From NCBI GenBank assembly GCA_038801785.1, contig JAULTD010000001.1, positions 441,568-505,567 of the forward strand: a DNA stretch of 64,000 bases, given 5' to 3'. Shown here one piece after another: positions 3,398 through 63,821 of this stretch. Under the pieces are notes generated by a model. The model searched no databases, was not told the origin of the DNA, and saw nothing but the letters and a program-made list of their open reading frames with translations. The first letter of the stretch is position 1; the number at the start of each line of letters is the position of its first letter. Both the position numbers and the translations under genes were made by a program. This DNA is from Candidatus Methanomethylicaceae archaeon GD_Cm_T35_P0_bin.15 (GTDB lineage Archaea; Thermoproteota; Methanomethylicia; Methanomethylicales; Methanomethylicaceae).

Positions 3398-4150
3398 TCA
3401 TCTGGCGGATATGGCGATGCGCTCCATCTCTTCCCGCTTCTGGACAGCGTAGCTCTTCGCGTCGTGGCTGCCTGCCAGCGCGATCTCGTCCGCAAGGCAC
3501 TCCTCTATCGGCTTGTTGCTGCCGAATGCAGAGTTCCTCGCGGCGTCGGTGATGAACCTGAGCGCCAGGTCGACCCTCCTCTGCGGCGAGGAGTCGACCG
3601 ACTGCGGGTATGAGATGCCGCCGTAGCGGATCCTTGTGACCTCCTCGCGGGGCGCAGAGTTCTCTATCGCCCTGACGAGGACCTGGATCGGGTTCTCCCC
3701 GGTCTTGAGCGCGACCAGCTCGAGGGCAGCGTCAACTATGCTCAGCGCGAGGATCTTCTTACCCCCGTTCTTGCCGGGGCGCATCATGCGGTTGGCCAAC
3801 CGCTCGACTATGTTGACGTCGGCCTTGCCGAACCGCCTGTGCTCGTGCCTGCCGCTCGAGTGGGGGATAAGCTTGGGTTCCACGTCGATGTAACTCTGGA
3901 GGCCCCTGTCCCTCTTCTCTATGTTGGAGACATCCCACTTGCCGAAGAGCTTGATCGAGTCGGAGTAGGATGCGGGCGCCTCAGGCGCGGTTTCGGTTTC
4001 GGTTTCGGTTTCGGTTGCAGTTTCAGGTTGAGACTCGGGCCCGGCCCCTGCCGATTCCGGGCCCGGACCTGACCCGGCTGCTGCCGGGTCCACGGCGGGC
4101 TCGGATCTTGGTTCGGGTTGATTCTCGGGAGTCTTCTCGGACATAATCAT
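3398..4150 (-). CDS. rps7: 30S ribosomal protein S7 with a ~60-aa acidic low-complexity N-terminal extension (..[18 protein letters not shown]..)
   Basis: The C-terminal ~190 aa match archaeal S7 ([15 protein letters not shown]..., ...[13 protein letters not shown]). The extension is encoded by a (GAAACC)n microsatellite at ~3960-4030. Confidence 0.9.
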
Positions 4151-4168: not shown

Positions 4169-4612
4169 TTACCTCACCGGCTTCTGCTTCTTGCCGGTCA
4201 TCAGCGCCTGGAGGGAGACGCCGTTGATCTTCACCACCTTCCACCTGACGCCGGGCAGGTCTCCGAGCGCCTTACCCATCGGGCCCCCTATGCCCTCGAC
4301 GATTACCTCGTCGTGCTCGTCCGCAAAGTTGAGGGCCCCGTCGCCCGGCAGGAAGGCAGTAATCTGCTTGCCGTTCTTGATGAGCTGCAGCCTGGCGCAC
4401 TTCCGGACGGCGCTGTTGGGCTGCCTGCTCTCGACGCCCACCTTCTCGAGGACGATCCCCCTGGCCTGGGGCGCCCCCTCCAAGGGGTCAGCCTTGACGT
4501 CGAGCTTCAGCGCCCTCCGTTTGAACTGCCTCAGGCTCCAGCGGAACGCCTTCTTCTTCTCGGAAAGCTTCCTCCCGGCAAGCAGACCTCTAGGCGATTT
4601 TGAACCTGCCAT
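4169..4612 (-). CDS. rps12: 30S ribosomal protein S12
   Basis: 147 aa from the internal ATG ([10 protein letters not shown]...). Conserved '[28 protein letters not shown]'. The longer ORF upstream of that Met is R/P-rich and judged non-coding. Confidence 0.92.
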
Positions 4613-4774
4613 TAACCTACACCTTGATGCTTTTTTGGATAATGCTTCACCGATATTTAAGGTTCTCGCCGGGGAGGGGGCATCAATCATGGGGGCGGTC
4701 TTGGGTGGGCAGGGGCCCCTGGCCTGACTGCCCCGCAACTCCGGCAGATACTGAGTCTGGCTCACGTCGAGGCG

Positions 4775-5446
4775 TTATTTCGTGGCGCCGTAGACTGCGA
4801 AGTTATAGTACTTCCATAGTATGTCGGGGTTCTTGAACCCGCTCTCCCCGAGGCGCCGGAGGTCTTCGAGGAGGACAACAGGCCGGTCCTCGCGCCGGTA
4901 CCTTTCGTTGATTTCGCTTATCTCGCCTGCCGAGAGCGACCGGCTGAGGAAGTCGCGCCACTTCCTCAGGTACAGCTCCTGCCAAGGGGCGCTGCTCGCC
5001 AAGAAGATATCAGCGTTGAGGAATGCGCCTCCATCCCTCAGAGCGCCGTATACCTTGGCAAATAACTGCTGCCGGCCCCCTACCTCAAGGTGGTGCAGCG
5101 CCAGGGAGGATACTACCGCATCGTACTTTGCGTCGAAGCTGTATTCCGACAGGTCCTTGAGCACGTAGGAGGCCTTGCCTTCGCCGAGTTTGCTCCGGCA
5201 TATCTCCAGCATCCTTTCGGAGATGTCCAGGCAGGTAATGTTGGCGTTCGGGAATCTCTTCCTGATCATCAGCGAGAGGTTGCCGGTCCCGCTCCCGAGG
5301 TCGATGACGTCGATCCCCTGCGTGCGGGGGAATGGCACCGCCGACACCAGAGCCTCCAGCATCTCCCGATAATGCGGAATGGTTTTTGTGACCGCGGCGT
5401 CAAAGCCGCTTGCTTCCCCGTTGAAGTGGGCCCGGACGGCATTCAT
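4775..5446 (-). CDS. Class I SAM-dependent methyltransferase inserted between nusA and rps12
   Basis: Motif I 'VIDLGSGTGNLS' and motif II 'ITCLDISERML'. Start chosen at MNAVRAHFNG; an alternative start lies at 5491. The upstream part of the 294-aa ORF is low-complexity. Confidence 0.75.
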   Translation of the reverse strand: MNAVRAHFNGEASGFDAAVTKTIPHYREMLEALVSAVPFPRTQGIDVIDLGSGTGNLSLMIRKRFPNANITCLDISERMLEICRSKLGEGKASYVLKDLSEYSFDAKYDAVVSSLALHHLEVGGRQQLFAKVYGALRDGGAFLNADIFLASSAPWQELYLRKWRDFLSRSLSAGEISEINERYRREDRPVVLLEDLRRLGESGFKNPDILWKYYNFAVYGATK

Positions 5447-6094
5447 CCGTTTCTTGCTGTCAGGGTCCCGGCATGCAGCTGTCATAACCATTCTTCCATG
5501 CGGGCGGCTTATAAGGGTCGGGGGCCGCCTGCTTGCCAACAGCGTTTTTGGCGTTGGGGACGGCCGCGCGTCTCCTGTCCGGGTCGGGGTGTTTGGCATG
5601 CTCAGGACGCCCCCGCGCGCTTGCGTGCTCCCCTTTACCCGGGGCTCGATCTTCAGCATCAGCCGGCAGGGAACGGCTTCGTCCGGAGGAGGCGGACGCT
5701 GCCCTTTCCGTACCTGCAGGGCGCGAGCTCCTCCCGGAACTCGCCGGTTGCGGGGGCGCGGGGCAGAAGCAGATGTGGCTCCTGAACGCGGCGGGGCGGC
5801 AGGTCGCCGTCCAGCTTAAGGGCATCCGGTAGCTTACCGCCTCCTCCGCGCCGGGCGCCGACTCCCGGAAGGTCTGCCGTCTCTCCCCCAGTATCTCCCG
5901 GACGTCTTTGGCACCATGCTGGTTGTGTAGTGGATGGGAAAGTCCCGGAGGCAGGAGGGCATAGACGGGTACACCGCCCAGTCCCCCAGAGCCGCAGAAA
6001 ACCTGTAGTATTCGGGGCGGGCGCAGCGGCGCTGCGGCCGTTATCCGCAAATCGCAAAGCAAGCCAAGCACACTGGCTTCGGGGGAGGGCGTAT

Positions 6095-6499
6095 TCACAT
6101 GATGACTACGTTGTCGAAGTTAAAATGACGCTTCATCAGGAGGCGGGTCTTGGTGATGTTCCTGCCGCTCTTCCCGATCGCCATGCCCTTGTCGTGGGGG
6201 TCGACCGTGACCTGCGCGACCATGTGGCCGTCGGAGGTCTTGCTCACCTTTATGCCTCTGACCTTGGCGGGGGCGAGGATGTTCTTGAGAAACCCTTCGG
6301 GGCTGTCGGCGTACTCGACTATCTCGACTGTGCGGCCTATGACCTTCCTCGCACGCTCGATGTTGACGCCGTTCTTCCCTATCGCGAGGCCCATGTCGCC
6401 GGGGCGGATGACGTATATTATCCTGTTCGACTCTGCCTCCACCACGCAGTCCTTGGCTATCGCGCCGGTGAGGTTCTCCAGGAGGGCGATGTAGCGCAT
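6095..6499 (-). CDS. nusA: Archaeal NusA-like transcription termination/antitermination factor (two KH domains)
   Basis: 134 aa. Two KH-domain GXXG loops: 'GLAIGKNGVNIERA' and 'GMAIGKSGRNITK'. Sits in the conserved position downstream of L30e. Confidence 0.9.
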   Translation of the reverse strand: MRYIALLENLTGAIAKDCVVEAESNRIIYVIRPGDMGLAIGKNGVNIERARKVIGRTVEIVEYADSPEGFLKNILAPAKVRGIKVSKTSDGHMVAQVTVDPHDKGMAIGKSGRNITKTRLLMKRHFNFDNVVIM

Positions 6500-6532: not shown

Positions 6533-6826
6533 CTATGCCTCCTGGACGCTCAGGATCGCAGACTCGCCCGGGTCTATGACGGTTATCGTCGAGACGGGGA
6601 AGGGCTTGCCGCAGAGGCCGCCGAGGTCCCAGCTCGAGCCGGGGTACCTGTAGACCGGCACGGCGTCGCCTATCGAGGCCTTCATCCTGGAGAAGAGCTC
6701 CTCGGGGGCGTTCGCCGCCATCACGACGAGCTTGCCCTTATTCTTGGCTGTCTTGAGGCCGGTCTTGAAGCCGATCTCGACCTTGCCGGTCTTGATCGCC
6801 ACCTTCAGTTCCTTCGCGAGATCCAT
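6533..6826 (-). CDS. rpl30e: 50S ribosomal protein L30e
   Basis: 97 aa. 'GKLVVMAANAPEE' and the C-terminal 'DPGESAI' are typical of L30e. Conserved position between rpoA'' and nusA. Confidence 0.9.
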   Translation of the reverse strand: MDLAKELKVAIKTGKVEIGFKTGLKTAKNKGKLVVMAANAPEELFSRMKASIGDAVPVYRYPGSSWDLGGLCGKPFPVSTITVIDPGESAILSVQEA

Positions 6827-6827
6827 A

Positions 6828-8381
6828 TCATGCGCCCTCCTTGAATCTCATGAAAAGCTCCACGATTCCGGTGCCCAGCGGGATAGGCTGTCCAACGATC
6901 ACGTTCTCAGTTACTCCTTCGAGTGCGTCCTCTTCTCCATGTGACGCCGCATCCAATAAATGCTTTACGGTCACCTCGAAGGCCGCCCTCGCCAGGACGC
7001 TCGACTTTTCGCCGCTGACCCCGTGCCTGCCAATCTGCCTTATCCTCCCCGTCGAGGTCATGAGGTCGGCCACGAGGATTACGTGGCGCACATCCACATC
7101 GAGACCCTGCTGGTCCAGCACCTGGAAGGCCTCCCTGATTATGGCAGACCTGGCCGCCTCGATGCCGAGGACCTCGGCTATCTCCGAGATGTTGTTGGTG
7201 TATATCCTCGTGAGGTCGATCCCCTTTATGGTCAGGGTGGTCGCCAAGTTCGAGCCGTCGGTGTGGAGGACGTACTCGTCGCCCTCCTTCTGGATGAGCA
7301 CCCTCTTCACCCCCTTTATCCCCTTGAGGCGGAGGTCCAGGATCCGCTCCCTGAGGCGCTTGATCTTGTCGACCGTGACGACCTCGGGGATAATCGTGAG
7401 CCGGTTCCCCTCTATCTCGACCTTCCCGACCTTGAGCTTCTCTATCGACTTGGCGATAAAGTCGGTGCTCAGCCCCTTGTCGGCGGCTATCTCCTCGTCG
7501 ACGTCCACTATGACGGAGCCGTTGACCATATCGTACTCGATGCTCCGGGCCACGTTCTCCACGGCGATCCTCTCTATCCGGGCGACGACCTCCTTCGCCT
7601 TCTCGAGGCTGTGCTTGTGCTCCTCGTCGAGGTAGATGGTCATCGTCGGGGTCGAGGGGCTCCTGCGGGCGTCGACGATCTCTATGAGGCGGGGGAGGCC
7701 GAGGGTGACGTTCAGCTCCCTGACTCCCGCATAGTGGAAGGTCCTCAGCGTCATCTGGGTGCCGGGCTCGCCGACCGACTGTGCGGCGACGGTGCCCGCG
7801 GCCTCGCCTGGCTCCACCAGCGCCTTGGTGTACGCCCTGCAGACCTCGTCGACGACGGCCCTGGTCTGCGCCTCGTCGAGTTCCATCGCGGAGAGCTTCT
7901 CCCTCAGCTGGTTGATTAGGCTCTCCGGGAGGGGCCTGTCGAGTCCGTCGAGGACGGTCTCGAGCGGGGTCTTGGCCTTGGGGGGCTCCCCGGCGGCTTC
8001 GGCTTTAGCTTTGGTCCCGGCCCCGGTCCCGGAGGCGGGGGCGGGGGCGGGGGCGGCGGAAGCAGCCTCCTTCGCCGCCCTGGTCTTGCCGCCGGCCTTA
8101 GGTTTGGGCCTCTTTGCGGCCGCAGCCGGATTGGGCTTGCCAGCCTTCGGCTTGGGCTTGACGCCCTTGGCCCCGGCGCCAGCGGATTTGGCGGCGTCGC
8201 CGGGGGGGAGCGCCTCTCCTCCCCCCTCGACCTCTTCCAGCTCCGTCTCGATCTCTTCGTCGTCTACTTCCTCGAGGTCGGCATCGCCATCAATATCGGC
8301 ATCAGCAGCGATATCGGTGTCGGTGTCGGTATCAGTATCGGTATCAGTCTCTATCTCTTTGTCTATCTCGTTGTCGCTCAT
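6828..8381 (-). CDS. rpoA2: DNA-directed RNA polymerase subunit A'' with a ~140-aa N-terminal low-complexity extension (acidic DT-repeat, then a K/P/A-rich basic stretch)
   Basis: The core from '[13 protein letters not shown]' to the C-terminus matches archaeal RpoA''. Its ATG overlaps the rpoA' stop as ATGA (8378-8381), which supports the long N-terminus being real. A (GATACC)n repeat at ~8290-8350 encodes [11 protein letters not shown]. Confidence 0.9.
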
Positions 8382-11059
8382 TGCCTCTTGCCTCCGGTCC
8401 CTGTCCCGATCCCGGTGCTCAGAACCTTCTCTATAATCTTGTCCACGTTGACCGCCTTCCCGTGGTCGCTCTTCGCCGGATCCACGCCATCGTCGCCGTA
8501 CTTGAACTGGATGATCGACCCGTCAGTCCCCCGGACGGTGCCGTCGTACTCCACGCGGACGTCCTGGAGGGCGTTGATGAGCCTCCTTTGCATATAGCCG
8601 CTCTGGCTGGTCCTGACGGCGGTGTCTACAAGCCCCTCTCTCCCTCCCATCGCGTGGAAGAAGAACTCGATGGGGTCGAGCTTGTCCTTGTAGCTGCTGT
8701 ACACGAACCCGTGCGCCTTCGCGCCTAGGTCCCTCGGCTTGAAGTGAGGGAGGGTGCGGTTCTGGTAGCCGCGCGTGATCCGCTCGCCCCGGACGGACTG
8801 CTGGCCTACGCAGGCGACCATGTGCGCCAAGTTCATGAGGCTCCCCCTTGCGCCTGTCCGAGACATGAGGAGGGCGGTATTCCCTTCTTTCAGGTACTGG
8901 CTCGCGATGTCGCCCGCCTTCTCCCTCGCCTCCTCCAGCTCCTGCATGATCTTGGTCTCGAGCGTCTCCTCGAGGGTCCTGCCAGGGAGCCTGTCGAGCA
9001 GGCCCTGGTCGTAGATCTCGATCAGCTTGGCGGTCTTGCTCTCGGCCTCGCTGATGACCGCCCTGATCTTCTCCTTCCCCTCGGCGGGGAGGTCCTCTTC
9101 GTCGAGCCCTATGGTCAGGCCCTTGCTGTCGATGTAGCCCAGGAAGAGCCTGAACGCCTTGTCGATATAGTCCCTGCCGACGTCCGTGCCGTAGTCCTTG
9201 ACGAGCCTGTGGAGGACGCTCTCCGGCTGACTGGCGCCGATCGACTTCTTGTCGAGGACGCCGCCGAGGAGCTGGCCGTCCCTGATTATGACGTAGGCGT
9301 CGTGCTCGCATTCCTCCTTCTTGCACTTGGGGCACTTCTCGCAGACATTCGACTTGAGCGAGTAGTTGAAGCCCTTCGGGAAGAAGAGGCTCGCGAGCTG
9401 CTTGCCAGTCCACCTCTCCTCCGGAGAGGTTATCGCAGGCGGCGGGAGCCCGCCGGTATAGCCGGCCTCGGTCAGGAGCTGGCAGGCCTCCTCGCGGGTG
9501 AGGGTCGTGCTCTTCCTCGTCAGCATGTAAGCGCCGGAGATATAGTCCTGGATCGCGCCCATGATGGGGCCGCCGTACCTCGGGGAGAGTATCTGCTCCT
9601 GGACGAGCATAAGGACGAGGGCCTCGGCCCTGGCCTCCTCGCTCTGAGGGACGTGGAGGTTCATCTCGTCCCCGTCAAAGTCGGCGTTGTAGGGGGGGCA
9701 GACGCAGAGGTTGAGCCTGAAGGTCTTGTACGGGAGGACCCTGACCCGGTGCGCCATTATTGACATCCTGTGGAGCGAGGGCTGCCTGTTGAACATGACG
9801 ATGTCCCCGTCCTTGACGTGCCTCTCGACGATGTAGCCCACCTCGACAGAGTCGGCTACGACCTTGCGATCCTTCGGGAACCTCAGGTCTATGCGCCTCC
9901 CGTCGGGCCGGATGATGTAGTTGGCGCCGGGGTTGATGTCAGGCCCGTTCTCTATGAGTTTCCGCATCGCCTCGATGTTGAAGTGGTTGATCCGCTCGGG
10001 GATGGTGAGGAGTTTGGCTATGTCGACGGGGACCCCCACCTCGTTCATGCTGATGAGGGGGTCTGGGGAGATGACCGTCCGCGCGGAGAAGTCGACGCGC
10101 TTGCCCGAGAGGTTCGACCTGAACCTTCCCTCCTTGCCCTTGAGGCGCTGGGCTATGGTGCGGAGCGGCCTGCCGGACCTGTGCCTCGCCGGCGGGATGC
10201 CCGAGGTCTCGTTGTCGAAGTAGGTGGTGACGTGGTACTGGAGCAGCTCCCAGAGATCCTCTATGATCAGCTGGGGCGCGCCCGCATCTATGTTCTCCTT
10301 GAGGCGCTCGTTGATCCTGATGATGTCGACGAGCTTGTGGGTGAGGTCGTCCTCCGACCTGACGCCCGACTCGAGTGTGATCGACGGCCTCACCGACGAC
10401 GGCGGGACCGGAAGGACAGTGAGGACCACCCACTCGGGCCTCGCCAGCTCGGGGTTCAGGCCGACAAGGGCGGCGTCCTCGTTGGTCACCCTCTCGAGGC
10501 GGGAGCGTATCTCGTTCGCGGCGAGCTTGACGTTCCCCTCCTCGTGCTCCTCGTAGTAGGTGGTCGGCTTCTCGAACTTGATCTTGAACTGCTTCTCCCC
10601 GCAGTAGGGGCACTCGCCGATCTTGGTGGCCTTCTTCATTATCCGCTCTGCCAGCTTGAACCTGAGCTGCGGCCACCTGTGCTTGTAGTGCTCGGTGAGA
10701 CGGGTGTACCTGTCGTGGTCCTCCTTCGAGAGGATGAGCCTGCCGCAGTTCCAGCAGGTGGCCCTGATCATGAGGTAGACGAGCTTGGCGAAGCCGGGGT
10801 GGATGACGGGGCGGGCGAGCTCGATGTGGCCGAAGTGGCCCGGGCACTGCCCGACGCGGTTCCCGCAGGTCTGGCACTTCTGCCCGGGCTCGATCGTCCC
10901 GAGGCGTCTGTCCATAAGGCCGGCGTCGATGGGCACGCCGTCCTCGTCGTATGTATCCGCCGTGATGATATTGACCACGGACATCTTCCGTATGTCATCG
11001 GGCGACAGGAGGCTGAACCTGATCGCCTTGATGGATTTGGTGATCTCTGCTAGAGACAT
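8378..11059 (-). CDS. rpoA1: DNA-directed RNA polymerase subunit A'
   Basis: 893 aa. Zinc-binding '[17 protein letters not shown]'. Catalytic '[10 protein letters not shown]' motif. Confidence 0.97.
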
Positions 11060-11119
11060 CTTTCTCTCATCTCGCTCCTTTCACTATTGTTACAGCTGCC
11101 GGTATCAGTGCCGGCACCA

Positions 11120-11215
11120 CTGCTGATGCGGGCGCAGGTGTAGGCGAAGGTGCAGGCACAGGCACATGTACAGGCATAGGTGCAGGCATAGGCATAGGTA
11201 CAGGTGCAGGTGACA
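11120..11215. repeat. Hexanucleotide (RYAGGY) tandem repeat array of ~13 units in the 161-nt rpoB-rpoA' spacer
   Basis: 'gcaggt gtaggc gaaggt gcaggc acaggc acatgt acaggc ataggt gcaggc ataggc ataggt acaggt gcaggt'. Confidence 0.9.
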
Positions 11216-11220
11216 AGGCT

Positions 11221-14200
11221 TCACACCCTCTCCGAGAGCTTCAGGCGGGGCGCTATCCCCAGGCTCATGAGCTCCTGCAGGAGGAGCTTGAAGGCGTAGG
11301 ACATGACGACGGGGGTGCTCTTCGCCTTCTCGCCGCAGACGGGGCAGACGTGCTTGTCCTTGACCCGGTCGTAGTAGGCGATGAGCCCGCAGTCCTCACA
11401 GATATTGACCACTGTCTTGTCGGACTCGTCGAGGAGCCTCTCCTTGAGGAGCATGGCCGCTCCGTGGCCGATGAGGCAGTCCCTCTCCATCTCGCCGAAC
11501 CTGAGGCCTCCCTCCCTCGCGCGGCCCTCGGTCGGCTGCCTGGTAAGGATCTGGACCGGGCCTCGGGCCCTGGCGTGCATCTTGTCGGCCACCATGTGGT
11601 GGAGCTTGAGGTAGAAGGCGACGCCTATGAAGACCTCGGCCTCGAGGAGCCTGCCGGTCCTCCCGTCGTACATCACCTCCTTCCCGTTCGACTTGAAGCC
11701 CGCCTTAGTGAGGAGGTCCCTCATCGAGGCCTCGCTGGCGCCGCAGAAGGCTGTGCCGTCGACCGGCTGCCCGGAGACGGCGTAGGCCTTGCCGCCCAGG
11801 ACCTCGAGGAGCTGCCCTATGGTCATCCTCGATGGGATGGCGTGCGGGTTGATTATCAGGTCGGGGACTATGCCGTCCTGGGTGTAGGGCATGTCGTACT
11901 GGGGGACGAGCATCCCGACGACCCCCTTCTGGCCGTGCCTCGAGGCGAACTTGTCGCCGAGCTCGGGGACCCTCTCGTTCCTTACCCTGATCTTGACGAG
12001 CTTGTTCCCGTCCGAGGTCTCGGTCATTATCACGAGGTCGACCGTCCCGTCCTCGCCGGCCCTCATCGAGACGGAGGTCTCCCTCCGTATGGGCCCGGTG
12101 GACTCGAACTCGCGGTACTCCTCCAGGAACCTGGGGGGGCTCGTCTTGCCGACGAGGACGTCCCCTCCCTGGACTATGGACTCGGGCTCGATTATGCCGT
12201 CGTCTCCGAGGAAGCGGTAGGACTCGCTGGTGCGGTAGCCCCGGACGTTCGGGGTCGGCATCTCGATCTTGTCCTCCTGGCCGCCGGGGTACCTCCGCTC
12301 CTCGGTCTCGTAGCACCTGAAGAAGGAGGACCTGCCCAGGCCGCGTTCGACGGAGGACCTGTTCATTATGAGTGCGTCTTCTATGTTGTAGCCAGAGTAC
12401 GACAGGATCGCGACGACAAAGTTCTGCCCGGCGGGGCGCCTGTCCAAGTCTAGGATCCTGGCGCTCCGGGTGTTGACGAGCGGCCTCTGGGGGTAGTGGA
12501 GGAGGTGGCCGCGGGTATCGAGGCGCTTAGTAAAGTTGGCGGCGTAAAAGCCGAGCGACTGCTTCACCATGGCGGAGCCGTAGGTGTTCCTGGGCGACTG
12601 GTTTGCCTCCAGGAAGGGTATGAGGGAGGCGCTGATCCCGAGTATCGTGGACGGGATCACCTCCATGTGCGTGTGCTCTCCGGTGAGAGAGTCGACGTCC
12701 AGCGCGATGAGGCTGTTCTCCTCCTCCTCGGCGTCGAGGTACTCGACTATGCCCTGCAGGATTAGATCGTTCCACGTCCACTCGGAGGAGAGGCGGTCGA
12801 GGTGCTCCTTGGTCAGCCTAGGCGTCCCGCCGTCGGCGATCATGAGCGAGCGCCGAACGCGGCCGGCATCGCAGTTGATGTAGACCTCGTCGATCGTCCC
12901 GTACTTGTAGTGGGCGACGTTGACCTCGTGGTTGACCCTCCCGCGCCTCCTGAGCTTCCTTATCTCGGCGACGAGGAGCTCGGGGCGCTGGTGGATGCCG
13001 ATGAGGCGGCCGTTGAGGATGACCTTCGAGCCGGCCATCCCCTTCTTCCGGGCTGACTCGATCTGTTCGGTCTCGAGTTCGTAGAGGAGCTCCTCGATCG
13101 GCTTCTCGTCGACGCCGACCGAGATGAAGGCCATGAGTGCGAGGTTCTTGACGAGGCCGCAGTTAGGCCCCTCGGGGGTCTCGGCCGGGCAGAGGCGCCC
13201 CCACTGGGTGGAGTGGAGGTCCCTGGCCTCGAAGTGGGGCTGGCTCCTGCTCAGCGGGGAGATGATCCTGCGGAGGTGGCCGAGGGTCGAGATGTAGTTC
13301 GTCCTGTCGAGGAGCTGGCTCACGCCCGCCTTGCCGCCGACCCAGTTGCCAGTCGCGAGGGCGTGCCGCATCCTCTCGGTGATGACGTCAGCCCTGACGA
13401 GGGTCGGTATCGAGACGCGCCTGGACCTGCTCTTCGCCCTCTCGAGCTGGTACTTCATGTCCCTGCAGAAGCTCTTGAAGGCGACCCTGAAGAGGCTGGC
13501 GAGGAGGTCCCCTGCCAGTTTGAGGCGCTTGTTTGCATAGTGGTCCTTGTCGTCGGGCTTTCTCCTGCCGAGGGAGAGCTCGATGAGCTTCTCCGCCATC
13601 TGGCCGAGGTAGAGCGCCTTCTTCTTCCTGTCCGGCGCCTCCAGGCCGAGGTGGGGGAGGAGGTACTTGTCGAGGATCTGCTGGGCCCGCGAGATGCGGA
13701 AGTCGCGGGTCTGGCCGATCGCGACGCGGTTGCCGATATAGTCGAGGGCGTCCTCGACGGTGTTGATCTCCATGCCGGCCTCAAGGGTCGGGATGAGCGC
13801 CTTCTGGATGTCGGGGTCGCTCGATACGAACTCTACTATCTCCTTGTCAGAGGCGGTGCCCAGGGCCCTCATGAGGATCGAGAGGGAGATCCTCCCCGGG
13901 ATCGACGGGAACGTCACCTGGAGGCTGGTGTCCTTCATCCTCTCGAGCGTGACCGGGACGCGGAAGCCAGAGGTCGCAGAGAAGACCTTCGCGACGTGGG
14001 TGACGGGCGAGGCGCCCTCCATCACATCGACGAGGATGCGGTTGACCGCCAAGTCCTCCTGTATGACGACGACGCGCTCCGATCCGTTGATGATAAAGTA
14101 ACCTCCCGGGTCCTCGGGGTCCTCGCCCGCGCGGATGAGCTCGTCCTTGCTCATCTTCGAGAGGGCGCAGTACGCAGAGCGGACCATTATGGGGAGCTTG

Positions 14201-14556
14201 CCGATGTAGACCTCTATCGGCTCCTCCTCATAGCCGTCCTCCACCGGTATGACCGTGAGGTGCATCGACGAGGCGTAGGTGAGGTTGCGCTGCCTCGCCT
14301 CCATCGGCAGGATCTCCTTCTCGGAGCCGTCCGCCTCATGGATCGTCGGCTTGGATATCGAGAGCTTGCCCAGCTTTATCTTGTAGCCGGGGAGGTCGGT
14401 CTCGATGACGCCCTGCTCGTTGACGATCTCCTGGAGCTTGTTCCGGATAAAGTCGTCGAACGAGTCGAGGTGCTGCCTCACCAGCCCCTTCTCCTTGAAG
14501 AATGATTCTATCAGGGTCCACCTTTCATCCATACAGACAGTGCTCAACAAACTCAC
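11221..14556 (-). CDS. rpoB: DNA-directed RNA polymerase subunit B (unsplit, fused B'/B'')
   Basis: 1111 aa as a single ORF. Conserved RpoB blocks 'GDKFASRHGQKG' and 'GGLRFGEMERD'. C-terminal zinc ribbon 'CEDCG...CPVCG'. Confidence 0.97.
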   Translation of the reverse strand: MSLLSTVCMDERWTLIESFFKEKGLVRQHLDSFDDFIRNKLQEIVNEQGVIETDLPGYKIKLGKLSISKPTIHEADGSEKEILPMEARQRNLTYASSMHLTVIPVEDGYEEEPIEVYIGKLPIMVRSAYCALSKMSKDELIRAGEDPEDPGGYFIINGSERVVVIQEDLAVNRILVDVMEGASPVTHVAKVFSATSGFRVPVTLERMKDTSLQVTFPSIPGRISLSILMRALGTASDKEIVEFVSSDPDIQKALIPTLEAGMEINTVEDALDYIGNRVAIGQTRDFRISRAQQILDKYLLPHLGLEAPDRKKKALYLGQMAEKLIELSLGRRKPDDKDHYANKRLKLAGDLLASLFRVAFKSFCRDMKYQLERAKSRSRRVSIPTLVRADVITERMRHALATGNWVGGKAGVSQLLDRTNYISTLGHLRRIISPLSRSQPHFEARDLHSTQWGRLCPAETPEGPNCGLVKNLALMAFISVGVDEKPIEELLYELETEQIESARKKGMAGSKVILNGRLIGIHQRPELLVAEIRKLRRRGRVNHEVNVAHYKYGTIDEVYINCDAGRVRRSLMIADGGTPRLTKEHLDRLSSEWTWNDLILQGIVEYLDAEEEENSLIALDVDSLTGEHTHMEVIPSTILGISASLIPFLEANQSPRNTYGSAMVKQSLGFYAANFTKRLDTRGHLLHYPQRPLVNTRSARILDLDRRPAGQNFVVAILSYSGYNIEDALIMNRSSVERGLGRSSFFRCYETEERRYPGGQEDKIEMPTPNVRGYRTSESYRFLGDDGIIEPESIVQGGDVLVGKTSPPRFLEEYREFESTGPIRRETSVSMRAGEDGTVDLVIMTETSDGNKLVKIRVRNERVPELGDKFASRHGQKGVVGMLVPQYDMPYTQDGIVPDLIINPHAIPSRMTIGQLLEVLGGKAYAVSGQPVDGTAFCGASEASMRDLLTKAGFKSNGKEVMYDGRTGRLLEAEVFIGVAFYLKLHHMVADKMHARARGPVQILTRQPTEGRAREGGLRFGEMERDCLIGHGAAMLLKERLLDESDKTVVNICEDCGLIAYYDRVKDKHVCPVCGEKAKSTPVVMSYAFKLLLQELMSLGIAPRLKLSERV

Positions 14557-14559
14557 ACC

Positions 14560-14650
14560 TTTTCCTTTTGCTCTTCCCTTCTCCTTTTTCCTTCTCCTTC
14601 TCCTTCCCTCTTTCCTCTTTCCTCTCCCGTCCCCCCAGCCGCCCGAACCT
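14560..14650. repeat. ~90-bp homopyrimidine(+) tract between rpoH and rpoB
   Basis: 'ccttttccttttgctcttcccttctcctttttccttctccttctccttccctctttcctctttcctctcc'. Confidence 0.9.
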
Positions 14651-14659
14651 CGCCCCCGC

Positions 14660-14911
14660 CTAGCCCGGGACGACGTACCGGTAGGCCACGGAGCTGACGG
14701 CCACCTGGCTCTTCCGCTCTATCTTCAGAACCTCGCCGGGCTTCGCCCCGATCGCCTTGCAGACCGGGTCGCTCTTCCTTATCCACGGGAGGTCTTCCTT
14801 CCGTATGCCGTACAACCTTCTGAGCTCCTCCACTTCATCCTTCGTGAGGATCGTGAAGCGGGGGACTAGTTCATGCGACAGTATATCAAACTTGACCAAG
14901 CAGGCTCCCAC
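14660..14911 (-). CDS. rpoH: DNA-directed RNA polymerase subunit H (Rpb5 homolog)
   Basis: 83 aa. 'DILSHELVPRFTILTKDEVEELRRLYGI...LPWIRKSDPV' matches RpoH. Conserved position upstream of rpoB. Confidence 0.9.
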   Translation of the reverse strand: MGACLVKFDILSHELVPRFTILTKDEVEELRRLYGIRKEDLPWIRKSDPVCKAIGAKPGEVLKIERKSQVAVSSVAYRYVVPG

Positions 14912-15034: not shown

Positions 15035-15171
15035 TGGTCCCGCCCGCCGGACTTGAACCAGCGACCACCCGGTATTTGCCAGGCTGGCCCGGGGACATGC
15101 ACCGCCGAAGGCGAATTCCCCCGGTCGACCGAAGTCTACAGCCGGGCGCTCTACCACTGAGCTAGGGCGGG
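15035..15171 (-). tRNA. tRNA-Tyr (anticodon GUA) with a ~60-nt intron 3' of the anticodon; CCA encoded
   Basis: Cloverleaf reconstructed by hand on the minus strand. Acceptor stem CCCGCCC/GGGCGGG with C1:G72 and A73, which are archaeal Tyr identity elements. D-arm GCTC-AGTGGTA-GAGC. Anticodon stem CCCGG/CCGGG with loop CTGTAG|intron|A. T-arm GCTGG-TTCAAGT-CCGGC. Confidence 0.75.
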
Positions 15172-54636: not shown

Positions 54637-55131
54637 CTATATGGCGCCTTCCTCGGGGGTCAGGATGTTCACCCTCAGCGCCACGGTCTCGTCGGTGCAG
54701 AGACGCTCGAAGAGCTCGTCATATTCTTTCCTCACGGACTTCGTCTCGAAGTACCGGTTGTATTCGATGACCCGGTCCCGGCACCCGATACCCGAGTCGT
54801 TGAAGAAGTCGCGGGTGATGGGCAGTATCTTGTCAGGGCGGTTGCACGGGATGAGGAAGAACTCCTCGACTATCCGGTCGGTCTCGAGGACCCTGTAGCA
54901 GATGATGACGCCTTTCTTGGCGTAGATGCCGCCGTTGCCGTTACCGCTGCAGTTGCCGTTACCGCTGCAGTTGCCGTTACCGCTGCAGTTGCCGTTACCG
55001 CTGCAGTTGCCGTTACCGCTGCCGTTGACTCTGCCGCTGTTGGCGCTACACCCCAAAGAGTTGCCGTTTCCACTCGGGCAGTTGCTCTCAACCTCGGTCA
55101 TTTCCCTCTCACCTTGCTCCTGTTGCTCCAA
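54637..55131 (-). CDS. Hypothetical protein with an N-terminal Cys/Asn/Gly hexapeptide tandem repeat (NGNCSG x4-5) and a ~100-aa C-terminal domain of unknown function
   Basis: An 18-nt perfect tandem repeat at 54937-55026 encodes the repeat. An (AATCC)n pentamer repeat sits immediately upstream (55143-55185). Confidence 0.45.
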   Translation of the reverse strand: MEQQEQGEREMTEVESNCPSGNGNSLGCSANSGRVNGSGNGNCSGNGNCSGNGNCSGNGNCSGNGNGGIYAKKGVIICYRVLETDRIVEEFFLIPCNRPDKILPITRDFFNDSGIGCRDRVIEYNRYFETKSVRKEYDELFERLCTDETVALRVNILTPEEGAI

Positions 55132-57438: not shown

Positions 57439-59163
57439 TCACTCCTCAGCGCCGCCGCCCGCCAGCCGGGCCTCCACCTCGGGGGCATACATCTTGGGAC
57501 CGTCCCGGATCAGCTTCAGCTCGTACGCCATAACCGGCTTCACCACGGTCTTCAGGAGTCCGGACTTTCCAAGCATCAGGTCGGCGTTCTCCAGATCGAC
57601 GCCCCTCACCGCGCCGACGATGGGCGCCACGGTGAGGAAGATGGCCAGGAAGGACACTGCCCCCACGGCGAGGTTGAGCACATTCCCCAGCTGGACGAAG
57701 AGGTGGACGGCCACCACCGGGGCGGTCGCTATCCCTGAGGCAACGTATATCCTCCAGATCTTCCCCATGTTCAGGCCCAGCCCGTACCTGTTCCCCGCAA
57801 GGTAGAGGCCGTACACGGTATAGGCGAGGCTCGCCAGCAGGTAGATTATGATCGTCCCGGTAACGCCGATGAGCTGGGTCGCCAGCGGGGCGAGGGGGAT
57901 GAAGAGACCTGCGCGGAGCGCGTGCATCCTCAGGGTGAGCCTCGTGGCCCCTATCCCGTTGAACATGCTCTCGAGGACGGAGTAGCCGATCCCGGTGAAG
58001 AGGAAGAGGACGGTGTAGAGCGAGAAGTAGAAGGGCGCGAGGGTGTAGCTCGCCCCGTACAGGATATACACCAGCTCGTCGGAGAATATTATAGCCATGG
58101 TGGAGACGGGGACGAGGATGAGCGAGCCGTACCTGACCGTGAGGTCGAAGAACTTCTGAAGCTCCGAACGTTCCTTTGAAGGGTCTATCCTCGAGAAGGC
58201 GGGCACGAGCGCAAGCGCGATCGCATAGTTGAACATGGTCAGGATCGCGGAGAGGCTGATGGTCGCGTTGTAGTTGCCGATATCGAAGTTGGAGACGAAG
58301 AACGCGAGGAGGAGGAACTGGTACTGGTTGACCAGCATGATCAGGATCTGGCAGAAGTAGAGCGGGAACCCGTAGATGATCATCGGCTTGAGGTCGCAGA
58401 GGCCGTAGTGGAAGCGGGCGCGGAAGCCATAGCCGCCCTTAGGCGGCGGGTCCTGCGCCTCTGCCTGCAGGCTGCCGGGCGGAGACGCCTTGAGGGTCCT
58501 GAGGTACCGATCCACCCAGTAGAGGAGGGTCAGCCCGACGATCGCCCCGGCCAGGTAGCCCAGCACGTGGCCCGCGACCGCGCCTGCGACCCCGAAGCCC
58601 AGCAGTATGAGGAGGGGCGCCGTGACGACTTTGGTTATTGACATGAAGAGGTTGATGAGGACGCTCCTGCCCATCATGTTCAGCCCCATCAGTGCGTAGA
58701 CCCCGGGGGAGGTGATGGACTGGAGGAGGATTGTGATAGAGGCGATGCTGACGAGGAAGCTCATGTCGGGGCGGTTCAGGAGGTAGGTGGCGAAGAACCA
58801 GGAGAAGGTGAAGACTAGGAGGAAGACGAGAACCCCTATGAGGAACCTGAGCCCCATGCCGGCGCGGATGGTCCGGGCGATAAGGCTCTCGCGGCCGTCC
58901 GACCGCAGCTTCGCGGGGAACCTTATGAGCGCCTGGTCCAGGCCGAGCCCCATCAGGTAGTTCATTATGAGGGGTACGGTCAGCGCCAGGGTGTAGAGGC
59001 CGTAGCCGTCGGGGTCGAGGAGCCTGGCGATCAGGATGGAGGCGATGGCGGCGAGGACGTTGGTGGCGGCGTCCCCGATCATGAGGGCGAAGGCCCCCCT
59101 CGCAGAGTCTTCCGCTATGGAGGTAAGCTTCGTGCTGATGCCGTTGATCGCCGGCTTTGCCAT
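57439..59163 (-). CDS. Wzx-like oligosaccharide flippase (MOP superfamily)
   Basis: Start set at the internal ATG (MAKPAINGIST...). The 82 codons upstream are R/P-rich. ~14 TM segments. Confidence 0.6.
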   Translation of the reverse strand: MAKPAINGISTKLTSIAEDSARGAFALMIGDAATNVLAAIASILIARLLDPDGYGLYTLALTVPLIMNYLMGLGLDQALIRFPAKLRSDGRESLIARTIRAGMGLRFLIGVLVFLLVFTFSWFFATYLLNRPDMSFLVSIASITILLQSITSPGVYALMGLNMMGRSVLINLFMSITKVVTAPLLILLGFGVAGAVAGHVLGYLAGAIVGLTLLYWVDRYLRTLKASPPGSLQAEAQDPPPKGGYGFRARFHYGLCDLKPMIIYGFPLYFCQILIMLVNQYQFLLLAFFVSNFDIGNYNATISLSAILTMFNYAIALALVPAFSRIDPSKERSELQKFFDLTVRYGSLILVPVSTMAIIFSDELVYILYGASYTLAPFYFSLYTVLFLFTGIGYSVLESMFNGIGATRLTLRMHALRAGLFIPLAPLATQLIGVTGTIIIYLLASLAYTVYGLYLAGNRYGLGLNMGKIWRIYVASGIATAPVVAVHLFVQLGNVLNLAVGAVSFLAIFLTVAPIVGAVRGVDLENADLMLGKSGLLKTVVKPVMAYELKLIRDGPKMYAPEVEARLAGGGAEE

Positions 59164-59237
59164 GGCCCCTTGCGCCTGCCGACGTTGATCCTCCGGGCTC
59201 TGCTGCCCCGGATCCTCAGGCCGCGGTTTCATAGCAA

Positions 59238-59450
59238 TCATGCGGCCCCGAAAGACGTCACTATGAGGTATGACCTCAGGAGGGCGGCGGCGACGAACAG
59301 GAGGGCAACGGCGATCGCGATCATCCTGAGCCGCCCCCTGTCGATGCAGATGCTGGAGCCGTACTCTGACACTATCTCGTATGTGGCGAGGAGGATCAGC
59401 GCAGTCCATGTGAGCAGGAGGTTCGCGTCGAAGGGGGTAAGGGGGATCAT
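59238..59450 (-). CDS. Small 2-TM membrane protein preceded by a GGAGG Shine-Dalgarno sequence and an ~85-nt polypurine leader
   Basis: 70 aa. 'ggaggcaagg ATG'. Hydrophobic helices. Confidence 0.4.
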   Translation of the reverse strand: MIPLTPFDANLLLTWTALILLATYEIVSEYGSSICIDRGRLRMIAIAVALLFVAAALLRSYLIVTSFGAA

Positions 59451-59576
59451 CCTTGCCTCCTCTCTCCTTTCCCTTTCCCTCTCCCTCTCCCTCTCCCTTC
59501 CCCTCTCCCTTCCCCGTCTTCTTCCTCTTTCTCTTCCCCCTTCCTGTTGGCGTTCATATCGTATCCCGGATCGGGG

Positions 59577-60038: not shown

Positions 60039-61069
60039 GGCGCACCTGCAGGCCTGAACATCCGGAACGTTGCCACTATAGTCTTGCCGTCGGGCAGCAG
60101 ACCGCTCCTCTCTATGGATACGTGCTCCCCGGAGGACCTGGCCAGGGCGAGGGCGATCGAGCTGCAGAGGGGGCATCCCAGCGATCCGCAGATGTAGGGC
60201 AGGCTGCACGCCTCCCTGCAGAGGCCGCTGTATACCGATTTTTTGAGACGCACGGTCGCCGTCCCGCCGCTAATCGTCATACGGGTATCCCCGGCGATCT
60301 CTAGGTCCCTGAATAGCTCCTCCAGCCTCCCGGGGAGGGCGGCCAGTTTCGTCTGGGAGAAGGGCGCCCCCATCTCGTCCTCCAGGAGGTTGGCGAGGGC
60401 GAGCCCCGGCGGGGCCAGACAGATACCGGGGGGGTCCCCGGCCACCGAACTCCCGCCGGCGGCCTTTGCAGGGGGGGCGGGCGAGGCGGGGACGAAGACG
60501 GTCCCGCCGCGGATGTCCCGCGCGTGGGCCGGCGGGAGGTAGACGGCGGTTCCGTTGAGATTAAGGTCTGCCAGCATCCGGTCTATGTCCACCAGAAGGG
60601 GGAGCGTGCTGGCGTCGAGCAGGATGGCCTTGGCGTATCTCCCCGGCATCACTAGGAGGAGGACCGCCCCCCAGAAGACGAGGCCCAGTCCGATCATCGC
60701 ATGGAGCGAGGAGGCGGTCAGCGTGGAGATGGCGAGGGCAGTGGCGCCTGCTAGGATGAGGATCGCCGCGGCGGCCCGTGAGGGCCTGCGCCTCGACTTG
60801 CGGAGGGCGAGCTTCAGGGCGGACCTCTCCCTCTCCAAGCGGTCTATCCGCTCCTGCAGGCTGGCTGTGGCAGCCGATGTGTGGGCGTACTCGTGGTCTG
60901 CGACCCGGGGGCCGCCAGCGAGCCGGGGCCGTGATTGCGTTGATGGCGGCGGTGTTGGTGTTGTTGGTGATGGTGATGGTGATGGTGATGTTTGTGGTGA
61001 TGGCGGTGTTGGTGTTGTTGGTGATGGTGGCTGCTGCCCTCTTGTCTCCGGACCCGGTTCCGCAGTCAT
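60035..61069 (-). CDS. Membrane protein with a Pro/Thr/Ser-rich N-terminal repeat, a coiled-coil, one TM and a C-terminal Cys-cluster domain
   Basis: 'TTPTPPSPQTSPSPSPSPTTPTPPPS' is encoded by a (GGTGDT)n repeat at ~60940-61030. C-terminal 'CREACSLPYICGSLGCPLCSS'. Confidence 0.5.
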   Translation of the reverse strand: MTAEPGPETRGQQPPSPTTPTPPSPQTSPSPSPSPTTPTPPPSTQSRPRLAGGPRVADHEYAHTSAATASLQERIDRLERERSALKLALRKSRRRPSRAAAAILILAGATALAISTLTASSLHAMIGLGLVFWGAVLLLVMPGRYAKAILLDASTLPLLVDIDRMLADLNLNGTAVYLPPAHARDIRGGTVFVPASPAPPAKAAGGSSVAGDPPGICLAPPGLALANLLEDEMGAPFSQTKLAALPGRLEELFRDLEIAGDTRMTISGGTATVRLKKSVYSGLCREACSLPYICGSLGCPLCSSIALALARSSGEHVSIERSGLLPDGKTIVATFRMFRPAGAP

Positions 61070-63152: not shown

Positions 63153-63821
63153 GATCAGATGATCAGCCCCCTGGCCGGTCGGCGGCTGCCGTCTTGCTCA
63201 TTGCTCATTACGCAATACTCATCCCTCATCCTTCATCGCTCATCCCTCATCCCTCATCCTCATCCTCATCCTTATCCTTATCCTCATCCTCATCCTCATC
63301 GCTCATTGGGCAGCCCGCGCCGGCCGGCTCCCCTGCGGCGGATGGAGGGCGCCCGTATCGCTGAGCACTCTGCCGCGAACGACGCGATCCGCCAGCTCAG
63401 GGTAGCAGATCCCGTCCGGTTGTACCCGCCGGTGCGATCGCCTTCCCCATGCGCCCTTCTGCTCCCCCCGCCATCCATCCCCGTCGACCCCGCGGATGCT
63501 GGCGGAGCCGGCGTCGGGGGCGATGTCAAGGGTGATGCGGGTGCCGGCATACGTTCTGATGCGGATGATGACACGGGCAGGGGCAGGGGCGCAGACGCGG
63601 ATCCCGGCGGCAGTACTGGCGATGCCGGCACAGCTACGGGTACCTGCGATTCCCTTCCGTTCTCTGATGCCGTCACCGGCTTTCCTTCCTGCGCCTCCGC
63701 CGGCGCCCCCCTCAGGGTCCCAGGCACTGCCCCTGCTCCCTCCGCCGCGACCCCTCCCGGCTCTGCCCCCTGCGGACCCTTCCCAGCCCGCCGGGGCGCC
63801 GTCATATGTGTGCGGTTTTCA

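Follow-up and report, generated by a model that had tools for sequence, protein, structure and literature searches.

A predicted disordered, charge-patterned N-terminal tail on RNA polymerase subunit A'' of Methanosuratincola-like archaea

Why does a catalytic subunit of an archaeal RNA polymerase (RNAP) begin with some 138 residues ahead of its conserved core, are these residues made as protein, and what might they do? The question is raised by rpoA'', located at 6828–8381 on the reverse (−) strand of a 64,000-nucleotide (nt) stretch, hereafter 'the window', of contig JAULTD010000001.1 (positions 441,568 to 505,567) from Candidatus Methanomethylicaceae archaeon GD_Cm_T35_P0_bin.15, a member of the Methanomethylicia (former Verstraetearchaeota) near Candidatus Methanosuratincola. 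According to the list of open reading frames (ORFs) and their translations, the gene encodes 517 amino acids (aa). Its conserved part, which begins at about residue 139 and covers residues 139–517 plus the stop codon (6828–7967 (−); trigger loop, jaw and cleft), is a canonical RpoA''/Rpo1C core by TIGR02389, PF04998 and PDB chains: the TIGR02389 score is 497.7 bits (cut-off 420.65), residues 151–512 matching model positions 2–367 of 367, PF04998 (Pfam Rpb1 domain 5) matches at E=8e-55, and archaeal Rpo1C chains in the PDB match at E of about 1e-128. In this full-length, high-scoring core and in its standard operon the protein is like any other RpoA''. It differs in length. Whereas A'' usually has 385–400 aa, with the core no more than about 15 residues from the N-terminus, and every solved chain (PDB 2PMZ, 4AYB, 4QIW, 7OK0, 8CRO) has 391–397 aa, our protein is about 130 residues longer; residues 8–14 of the solved chains align with residues 135–144 of the query. 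The chain lengths and the alignment offset together give 130–138 extra N-terminal residues, in agreement with the roughly 140 of a first-pass annotation of the window, which had also stated correctly, as the TIGR02389 match and the solved chains attest, that A'' is normally of about 390 aa and begins near the LPESLINQL block. The off-type length leaves the assignment of the core to RpoA'' unaffected.

The extra residues, which we call the tail, fall into two parts of opposite charge. Residues 1–58 (8208–8381 (−)) form an acidic head, delimited by composition (15 Asp, 13 Glu and 7 Thr, net charge −27), that includes (DT)6 and then a D-x periodic stretch; the underlying hexanucleotide repeat, (GAYACY)n, occupies 8277–8351 (−) by Tandem Repeats Finder (TRF) and pattern search and encodes 13 residues and then 12 residues, TRF itself placing it at 8294–8348, the period-6 array of 8.7 copies at 8294–8345, with period-12 and period-18 arrays nearby. 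Residues 59–138 (7968–8207 (−)) form a basic body, delimited by composition and TRF, which is rich in Lys, Ala, Pro and Gly, has a net charge of about +11 and contains KPKPK, two copies of a 7-aa KP unit and (AP)n; among the 92 residues from 59 to 150 there are 26 Ala, 15 Pro, 15 Lys and 12 Gly (net charge +11). TRF finds repeats in this part too, at 8127–8168 (period 21) and 8030–8056 (period 6), so that at the DNA level the tail is pieced together from short tandem repeats, namely (GAYACY)n, an 18-nt unit, two copies of a 21-nt unit (the KP heptad) and (CCCGCC)n. The net charge of the whole tail is −14.

Composition and charge thus agree with the acidic (DT)n stretch followed by a Lys/Pro/Ala-rich basic segment of the earlier description, and so does the disorder that it had supposed: in an AlphaFold2 model built with a 60-sequence alignment, residues 1–138 lack secondary structure, with a predicted local distance difference test (pLDDT) score of 39–51 (41–51 in the acidic head, 39–48 in the basic body), and the first helix spans residues 139–145. 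Residues 1–138 are accordingly predicted to be intrinsically disordered. A phmmer search with residues 1–150 against 1.84 billion representative sequences returned 0 matches, and comparison of the tail with the PDB and Pfam at E≤10 gave only noise (best Pfam match YL1, E=0.43). Since the tail has neither predicted structure nor a sequence homologue, we reject the idea that it is a fused domain, including a fused Rpo13 or histone. The same result qualifies the description of the basic patch as 'histone-tail-like', which holds for composition and, because homology to histones or to any other family is missing, for nothing beyond it.

Is the tail translated? The rpoA'' ATG (8379–8381 (−)) overlaps the rpoA' TGA stop codon, read from the sequence at 8378–8380 (−), as ATGA, exactly the coupling that the first-pass annotation had described, and a GGAGG Shine-Dalgarno-like motif lies within the 3' end of rpoA' at 8391–8395 (−), 9 nt upstream of the ATG. 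One might suppose that this start is mis-called, that the real A'' begins near the core and that the 'extension' is an untranslated spacer left open by GC-richness. GC-rich DNA does yield long spurious ORFs here, for example a 198-aa 'S12' ORF, the true start of which is an ATG inside it; an antisense ORF at 7759–8436 is open as well; and GC content at third codon positions (GC3) is less extreme in the tail (0.75, with a first-position value of 0.71) than in the core (0.87), which makes the GC3 evidence for the frame weak. However, after codon 1 there is no in-frame ATG, GTG or TTG until codon 166, which lies inside the conserved core; initiation there would remove conserved N-terminal core helices, and a complete core therefore requires that the tail be translated. 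We accordingly reject an alternative in-frame start. We likewise reject an internal promoter or terminator, as between rpoA' and the core (sense strand, 7800–8700) there is neither a run of four or more T nor a TATA-like box, signals that are present at the operon borders. A 414-nt untranslated gap would, moreover, stand alone in an otherwise tightly coupled operon.

The relatives point the same way. In six of them (L001, L002, L004, L007, L013, which is the Methanosuratincola petrocarbonis locus, and L014) the tail ATG abuts or overlaps the rpoA' stop codon and GGAGG precedes it by 7–10 nt; this holds also for low-GC relatives, whose Lys-rich tails are open. Orthologues starting at a downstream Met behind a separate terminator, the outcome that would have spoken for a mis-called start, were not found in the relatives compared. 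Together with the substitution pattern of the tail (a ratio of nonsynonymous to synonymous substitution rates, dN/dS, below 1, and a single indel that is in frame, see below), these sequence features bring a mis-called start already close to refutation, and we regard it as very improbable indeed. The 517-aa product, tail included, is in all likelihood translated from the ATGA-coupled start, much as had been surmised.

Nor does the tail come from faulty assembly. The exact 517-aa protein has no entry in the indexed collection that we searched. L003, a 223-kb metagenome contig of the same species from the Joint Genome Institute (JGI), is 99.7% identical to the window, with 18 substitutions in 6551 nt and no indel, and has the same tail; because this contig is separate and non-identical, we reject an assembly artefact. 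The number of DT units is identical in the two sequences; as L003 is the one other strain-level sequence, this is a weak test of copy-number variation in (GAYACY)n between strains. The substitutions are unevenly distributed. Those that fall in rpoA', the A'' core, rpl30e or nusA, 10 in all, are without exception synonymous, whereas two of the three in the 450 nt of the tail are nonsynonymous (G54E and S117P); the core has two substitutions in 1101 nt.

To place the tail among its relatives, we surveyed 98 related protein clusters with an intact N-terminus. Long tails are present in 47 of them, short Lys-rich stubs (MADKKAKTKAEKEDPK...) in 19, and 32 have none. The 47 long tails are made of 27% Lys, 21% Ala, 11% Glu and 10% Pro, with a median net charge of +14 and only three negative; the window protein's tail is the longest in the sample (138 aa; range 59–138), and A'' of M. 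petrocarbonis (P0004, 464 aa) has one of about 86 aa that includes MAEEPSGRSIDE. We found no conserved short linear motif common to all tails, which share composition only. In a neighbour-joining (NJ) tree of the core alone, all tails of 59–138 aa form a single clade, that of the Methanosuratincola-like Methanomethylicia; its sister is a clade with stubs of 18–23 aa, and the outgroups have 5–7 aa ahead of the core. The topology indicates that the long tail arose once and grew in steps, with no loss observed. The alignment with orthologues that had been proposed as a check therefore shows the basic tail to be a clade-wide feature: the basic body is the window species' version of a tail that arose once and has been retained in every sampled descendant.

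How strongly is the tail constrained? Two close pairs of relatives, with small numbers of differences, were compared. In L001/L004, tail dN/dS is 0.34 (9 synonymous and 11 nonsynonymous differences) against 0.03 for the core; in L007/L002, it is 0.24 against 0.25, the latter over 63 N-terminal core codons and with Ns in L002. The sole indel between close pairs, in L007 versus L002, is one whole codon and in frame. A dN/dS below 1 together with a whole-codon indel indicates that the tail codes for protein whose sequence is under weak constraint, the pattern expected where selection on a disordered region acts on its composition.

These same data bear on the chief rival to any functional reading, namely that replication slippage at a permissive terminus produced the tail as a tolerated by-product: with the coupled start fixed on one side and the first core helix on the other, low-complexity sequence would accumulate harmlessly between them, and the bias towards Lys, Ala and Pro would merely reflect which repeats are tolerated. 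The repeat mosaic of the tail DNA, the quick turnover of tail length and sequence, the higher tail dN/dS in L001/L004 and the excess of tail substitutions, mostly nonsynonymous, between the window and L003 all fit such an origin, as does the reported enrichment of Thr, Asp and Pro above all other residues in archaeal low-complexity regions (PMC6821194). Harmless accumulation accounts less well for a long tail that was never lost in the sampled clade even though the cores have diverged to about 63–75% identity, for the consistently cationic composition of the tails, for a tail dN/dS that stays below 1, and for stepwise growth (from 5–7 through 18–23 to 59–138 aa) in which the stub is already rich in Lys.

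The acidic head differs from the basic body in its distribution. The most acidic 50-residue segment of the window protein has a charge of −26, and no relative falls below −5; some relatives have smaller acidic N-termini (MSEDEDIREEPEGEE in P0010, MSDESEDIEAENAE in P0029), but the large acidic head is peculiar to one species in the data searched. Its Asp codons are atypical, with GAT accounting for 8 of 15, whereas the cores of rpoB, rpoA' and rpoA'' use it in 16 of 140 cases (Fisher p=3e-4), and the five full GAYACY units differ from one another at synonymous third positions only. Taken together, the atypical codons, the synonymous-only differences between units and the absence from relatives make the acidic head look recent. 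To judge from its nucleotide sequence, it looks like a recent slippage expansion that is nonetheless read as protein.

Related repeats occur in other parts of the operon. The gene for ribosomal protein S7 (3398–4150 (−), 250 aa) begins with an acidic, Pro-rich N-terminal extension of about 65 aa (3956–4150; net charge −12), within which an (ACCGAA)n repeat at 3989–4024 encodes (TE)n. In-frame starts in this gene are found at codons 1, 3 and 20 only; S7 of the relatives L013 and L014 has 188–192 aa and begins at the conserved IKLFGKW block; and the codons of the extension are atypical, GAA making up 7 of 12, compared with 13 of 197 in the RNAP cores (p=1.5e-5). By these features of the sequence the S7 extension appears real. 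Its hexamer, GAAACC, is one base off the GATACC of rpoA'', and the window holds no other such arrays: a GAWACY dimer pattern matches 12 times, against 2.5 expected, and is confined to two clusters. The 161-nt spacer between rpoB and rpoA' (11060–11220 (−)) is filled by a (CCTRYR)n hexamer repeat and carries a putative Pro-x ORF of 49 codons with a TTG start, PAPVPMPMPAPMPVHVPVPAPSPTPAP, which ends 8 nt before the rpoA' ATG; the corresponding spacer measures 2–8 nt in M. petrocarbonis and L014. The spacer between rpoH and rpoB (14557–14659 (−)) is made up of purine-rich repeats over about 100 nt (on the sense strand, GAGGAAAAGG-like), compared with about 20 nt in relatives.

Where on the enzyme would the tail emerge? 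Within Pfam Rpb1 domain 5, the C-terminus of A' covers positions 2–67, and A'' continues from position 66. Residue 176 of the query aligns with residue 1045 of yeast Rpb1, so that residue 139 corresponds to about Rpb1 residue 1008, which we take to lie in the foot (approximately 871–1058 in the domain map of RNA polymerase II, Pol II). In Pol II this domain lies at the periphery, on the lower, downstream side of the enzyme. We found no usable statement in the literature on the location of the A'' N-terminus or of the foot in archaeal RNAP.

The explanation that we favour joins three elements: a translated, disordered, clade-wide tail; a function of this tail as a nucleic-acid-binding arm; and a young acidic cap. 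As a whole we hold it at about even chances. That the tail is real, translated, disordered and clade-wide we consider highly probable, and that it binds nucleic acid, a proposal drawn by analogy, we put forward more tentatively. The polycationic body would serve as a flexible arm with sequence-independent affinity for DNA or nascent RNA, in the manner of the Lys-rich C-terminal tail of Sulfolobus Rpo13 and of Lys/Ala/Pro tails of the H1 type. It would leave the enzyme where eukaryotic Rpb1 has its foot domain and, with roughly 80 disordered residues, would be long enough to reach downstream DNA, so as to raise local DNA affinity or to keep the enzyme attached to the nucleoid. The acidic head would most likely be drawn back by electrostatic attraction onto the basic arm, or else onto the DNA-binding cleft, and thereby lower nonspecific binding, acting as an autoinhibitory or DNA-mimic cap; alternatively, it may be a merely tolerated product of slippage.

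Several points weigh against this explanation. The function of the tail is inferred from composition and analogy, and its exit relative to DNA is deduced from alignment and general knowledge of Pol II rather than from coordinates. The tail evolves about 10 times faster than the core and varies in length from 59 to 138 aa, turnover that weak constraint would explain. The whole-tail net charge of −14 argues against simple attraction to DNA in the window species. Finally, the operon holds other young hexanucleotide expansions, both at the N-terminus of S7 and in the spacer between rpoB and rpoA', so that a mutational explanation suffices for the acidic head. The last two points speak at the same time for slippage as the source of the whole tail, the (TE)n of S7 and the repeat-filled spacers being equally young and all absent from relatives. 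With the retention, composition and stepwise growth of the basic tail set against them, we judge slippage without function to be unlikely for the tail as a whole, if still the main rival to a nucleic-acid-binding arm.

The nearest analogue of such an arm is Rpo13 (Wojtas et al. 2012, PMC3479171; Korkhin et al. 2009, PMC2675907). In Sulfolobus Rpo13 the first 32 residues include 14 Glu and the last 22 include 11 Lys; neither tail can be seen in crystals or in any structure, and deletion of the Lys tail abolishes binding to double-stranded DNA (PMC3479171). Lys-rich low-complexity regions are, more generally, associated with nonspecific DNA binding across prokaryotes (PMC6821194). The RpoA'' tail and Rpo13 have in common that they are part of an archaeal RNAP, that they combine an acidic N-terminal and a Lys-rich region, both disordered, and that they are lineage-restricted, but the resemblance is one of organisation only. 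Rpo13 is a separate subunit of about 104 aa that has a helix-turn-helix core and sits between Rpo5 and the clamp head, whereas the RpoA'' tail is covalently part of A'', lacks a folded core and extends over 138 aa compared with the 32 and 22 of Rpo13; no helix is predicted in residues 1–138, and no Rpo13 chain or family matched at E≤10. The C-terminal domain of linker histone H1 and bacterial H1-like proteins (AlgP, the tails of actinobacterial HU and topoisomerase I) share with the RpoA'' tail the dominance of Lys, Ala and Pro, the disorder and motifs such as KPKPK, and, in some RpoA'' relatives, SPKK-type motifs. Unlike them, the RpoA'' tail has no winged-helix or HU fold and no detectable homology (neither Linker_histone nor another H1-like family signature is present in Pfam at E≤10 or among the 1.84 billion representatives), sits on a catalytic RNAP subunit and not on a chromatin protein, and is preceded here by a large acidic block.

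The acidic head has parallels of its own. Bacterial sigma70 region 1.1, a small folded domain on sigma, and the 'expander' of Pol I A190, an internal insertion in the jaw, are acidic, flexible polymerase segments that could occupy or neutralise DNA-binding surfaces. Neither is homologous to the acidic head, the likeness being that of acidity and flexibility, and placement of the head in the cleft is hypothetical. In the most far-reaching form of our proposal, a clade of methanogenic Thermoproteota has fitted a catalytic subunit with an H1-like polycationic disordered arm, at the site of the foot that eukaryotic Rpb1 was to acquire later, and in the window species this arm and a DNA-mimicking polyanionic head ahead of it together make a self-inhibiting charge switch, which gates nonspecific binding of DNA or RNA. 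Such a switch would be the first known case of a disordered regulatory tail intrinsic to the core of an archaeal RNAP and would take over the function of Rpo13; we regard this form as speculative and rather doubtful.

The tail could instead be a docking or regulatory platform, loosely like the C-terminal domain (CTD) of Rpb1, that recruits factors or carries modifications, for instance methylated or acetylated Lys in the basic body and phosphorylated Thr in the DT repeat, without binding nucleic acid. A disordered low-complexity tail in the lineage of the largest subunit would suit such a role, and the Thr residues alternating with Asp in the DT repeat presumably resemble sites of acidophilic kinases; this repeat, however, is found in one species only. 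A methylated lysine has been observed in the Lys tail of Rpo13 (PMC3479171). The comparison with the CTD itself does not carry far: that domain is C-terminal and built of YSPTSPS-like heptads, whereas the RpoA'' tail is N-terminal, has periods of 2 and 7 aa and an unrelated sequence, and shows no heptad or other periodicity that is conserved. As the tails also share composition and no short linear motif, we think a platform improbable and prefer the nucleic-acid-binding arm.

Around rpoA'', the gene order rpoH-rpoB-rpoA'-rpoA''-rpl30e-nusA is that of the standard cluster and is identical in L013 and L014. In the window, rpoH occupies 14660–14911, rpoB 11221–14556, rpl30e 6533–6826 and nusA 6095–6499; rpoA', encoding the 893-aa subunit A' (8378–11059 (−)), is identified by NF006336 and TIGR02390 at E=0 and by Pfam Rpb1 domains 1–5. 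The gene call for rpoA' of M. petrocarbonis (L013, 5255–7999) has 914 aa and no Pfam match on record, as compared with 889–893 aa in the others, and both its termini look normal. Just upstream of rpoH, at 15038–15171 (−), Rfam places a 134-nt tRNA (52.6 bits), presumably intron-containing; ARAGORN reported no tRNA over the window. Between nusA and rps12 (4775–6057 (−)) lie a class I S-adenosylmethionine (SAM)-dependent methyltransferase gene (294 aa, 4775–5659) and an unassigned 132-aa ORF (5659–6057), an interval that contains nothing in L013 and is a 400-nt gap only in L014. The 198-aa S12 ORF mentioned above (4169–4765 (−), GTG start) is spurious, its real start being an ATG near 4611 (MAGSKSPRG..., 147 aa), and a TTAAATA box at about 4660 suggests that rps12 probably has its own promoter. 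With the S12 extension spurious and the S7 extension apparently real, we do not adopt the idea of a genome-wide habit of N-terminal extension.

Farther away in the window, a 164-aa ORF at 54637–55131 (−) contains a near-perfect 18-nt repeat at 54934–55039 (5.2 copies, 98% matches) that encodes (NCSGNG)n, and the ORF has a weak, sub-threshold, TrAA12-like Pfam match. Further period-6 and period-9 repeats stand at or near gene ends, at 63218–63306, 59458–59539 and 60941–61031 (CTCATC x13.8, CCTCTC x13 and GGTGTTGGT x8), and one of these three lies immediately before the start called for a polysaccharide-biosynthesis protein (57439–59409). The genome seems rich in hexanucleotide arrays.

What is new, then, is a feature within a known protein family. 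The databases name these proteins plainly 'RNA polymerase subunit A''', and literature searches for RpoA'' tails or for Methanosuratincola RNAP turned up no account of these tails. Archaeal RNAP cores are regarded as compact and nearly invariant, and differences between lineages are usually ascribed to small accessory subunits, Rpo8 and Rpo13 among them. This locus presents a highly charged appendage, predicted to be disordered, that is fused to a catalytic subunit, has a single origin and has been kept across a clade of methyl-reducing methanogens; with the acidic head, it also offers what looks like a clean example of protein growth by hexanucleotide slippage at a translationally coupled start. 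M. petrocarbonis is now cultured (PMC12244365) and its A'' is tailed, which makes the idea directly testable. If the tail does bind nucleic acid, it would be a built-in equivalent of the DNA-binding tail of Rpo13 and a simple prokaryotic example of polymerase regulation through a disordered, charge-patterned region.

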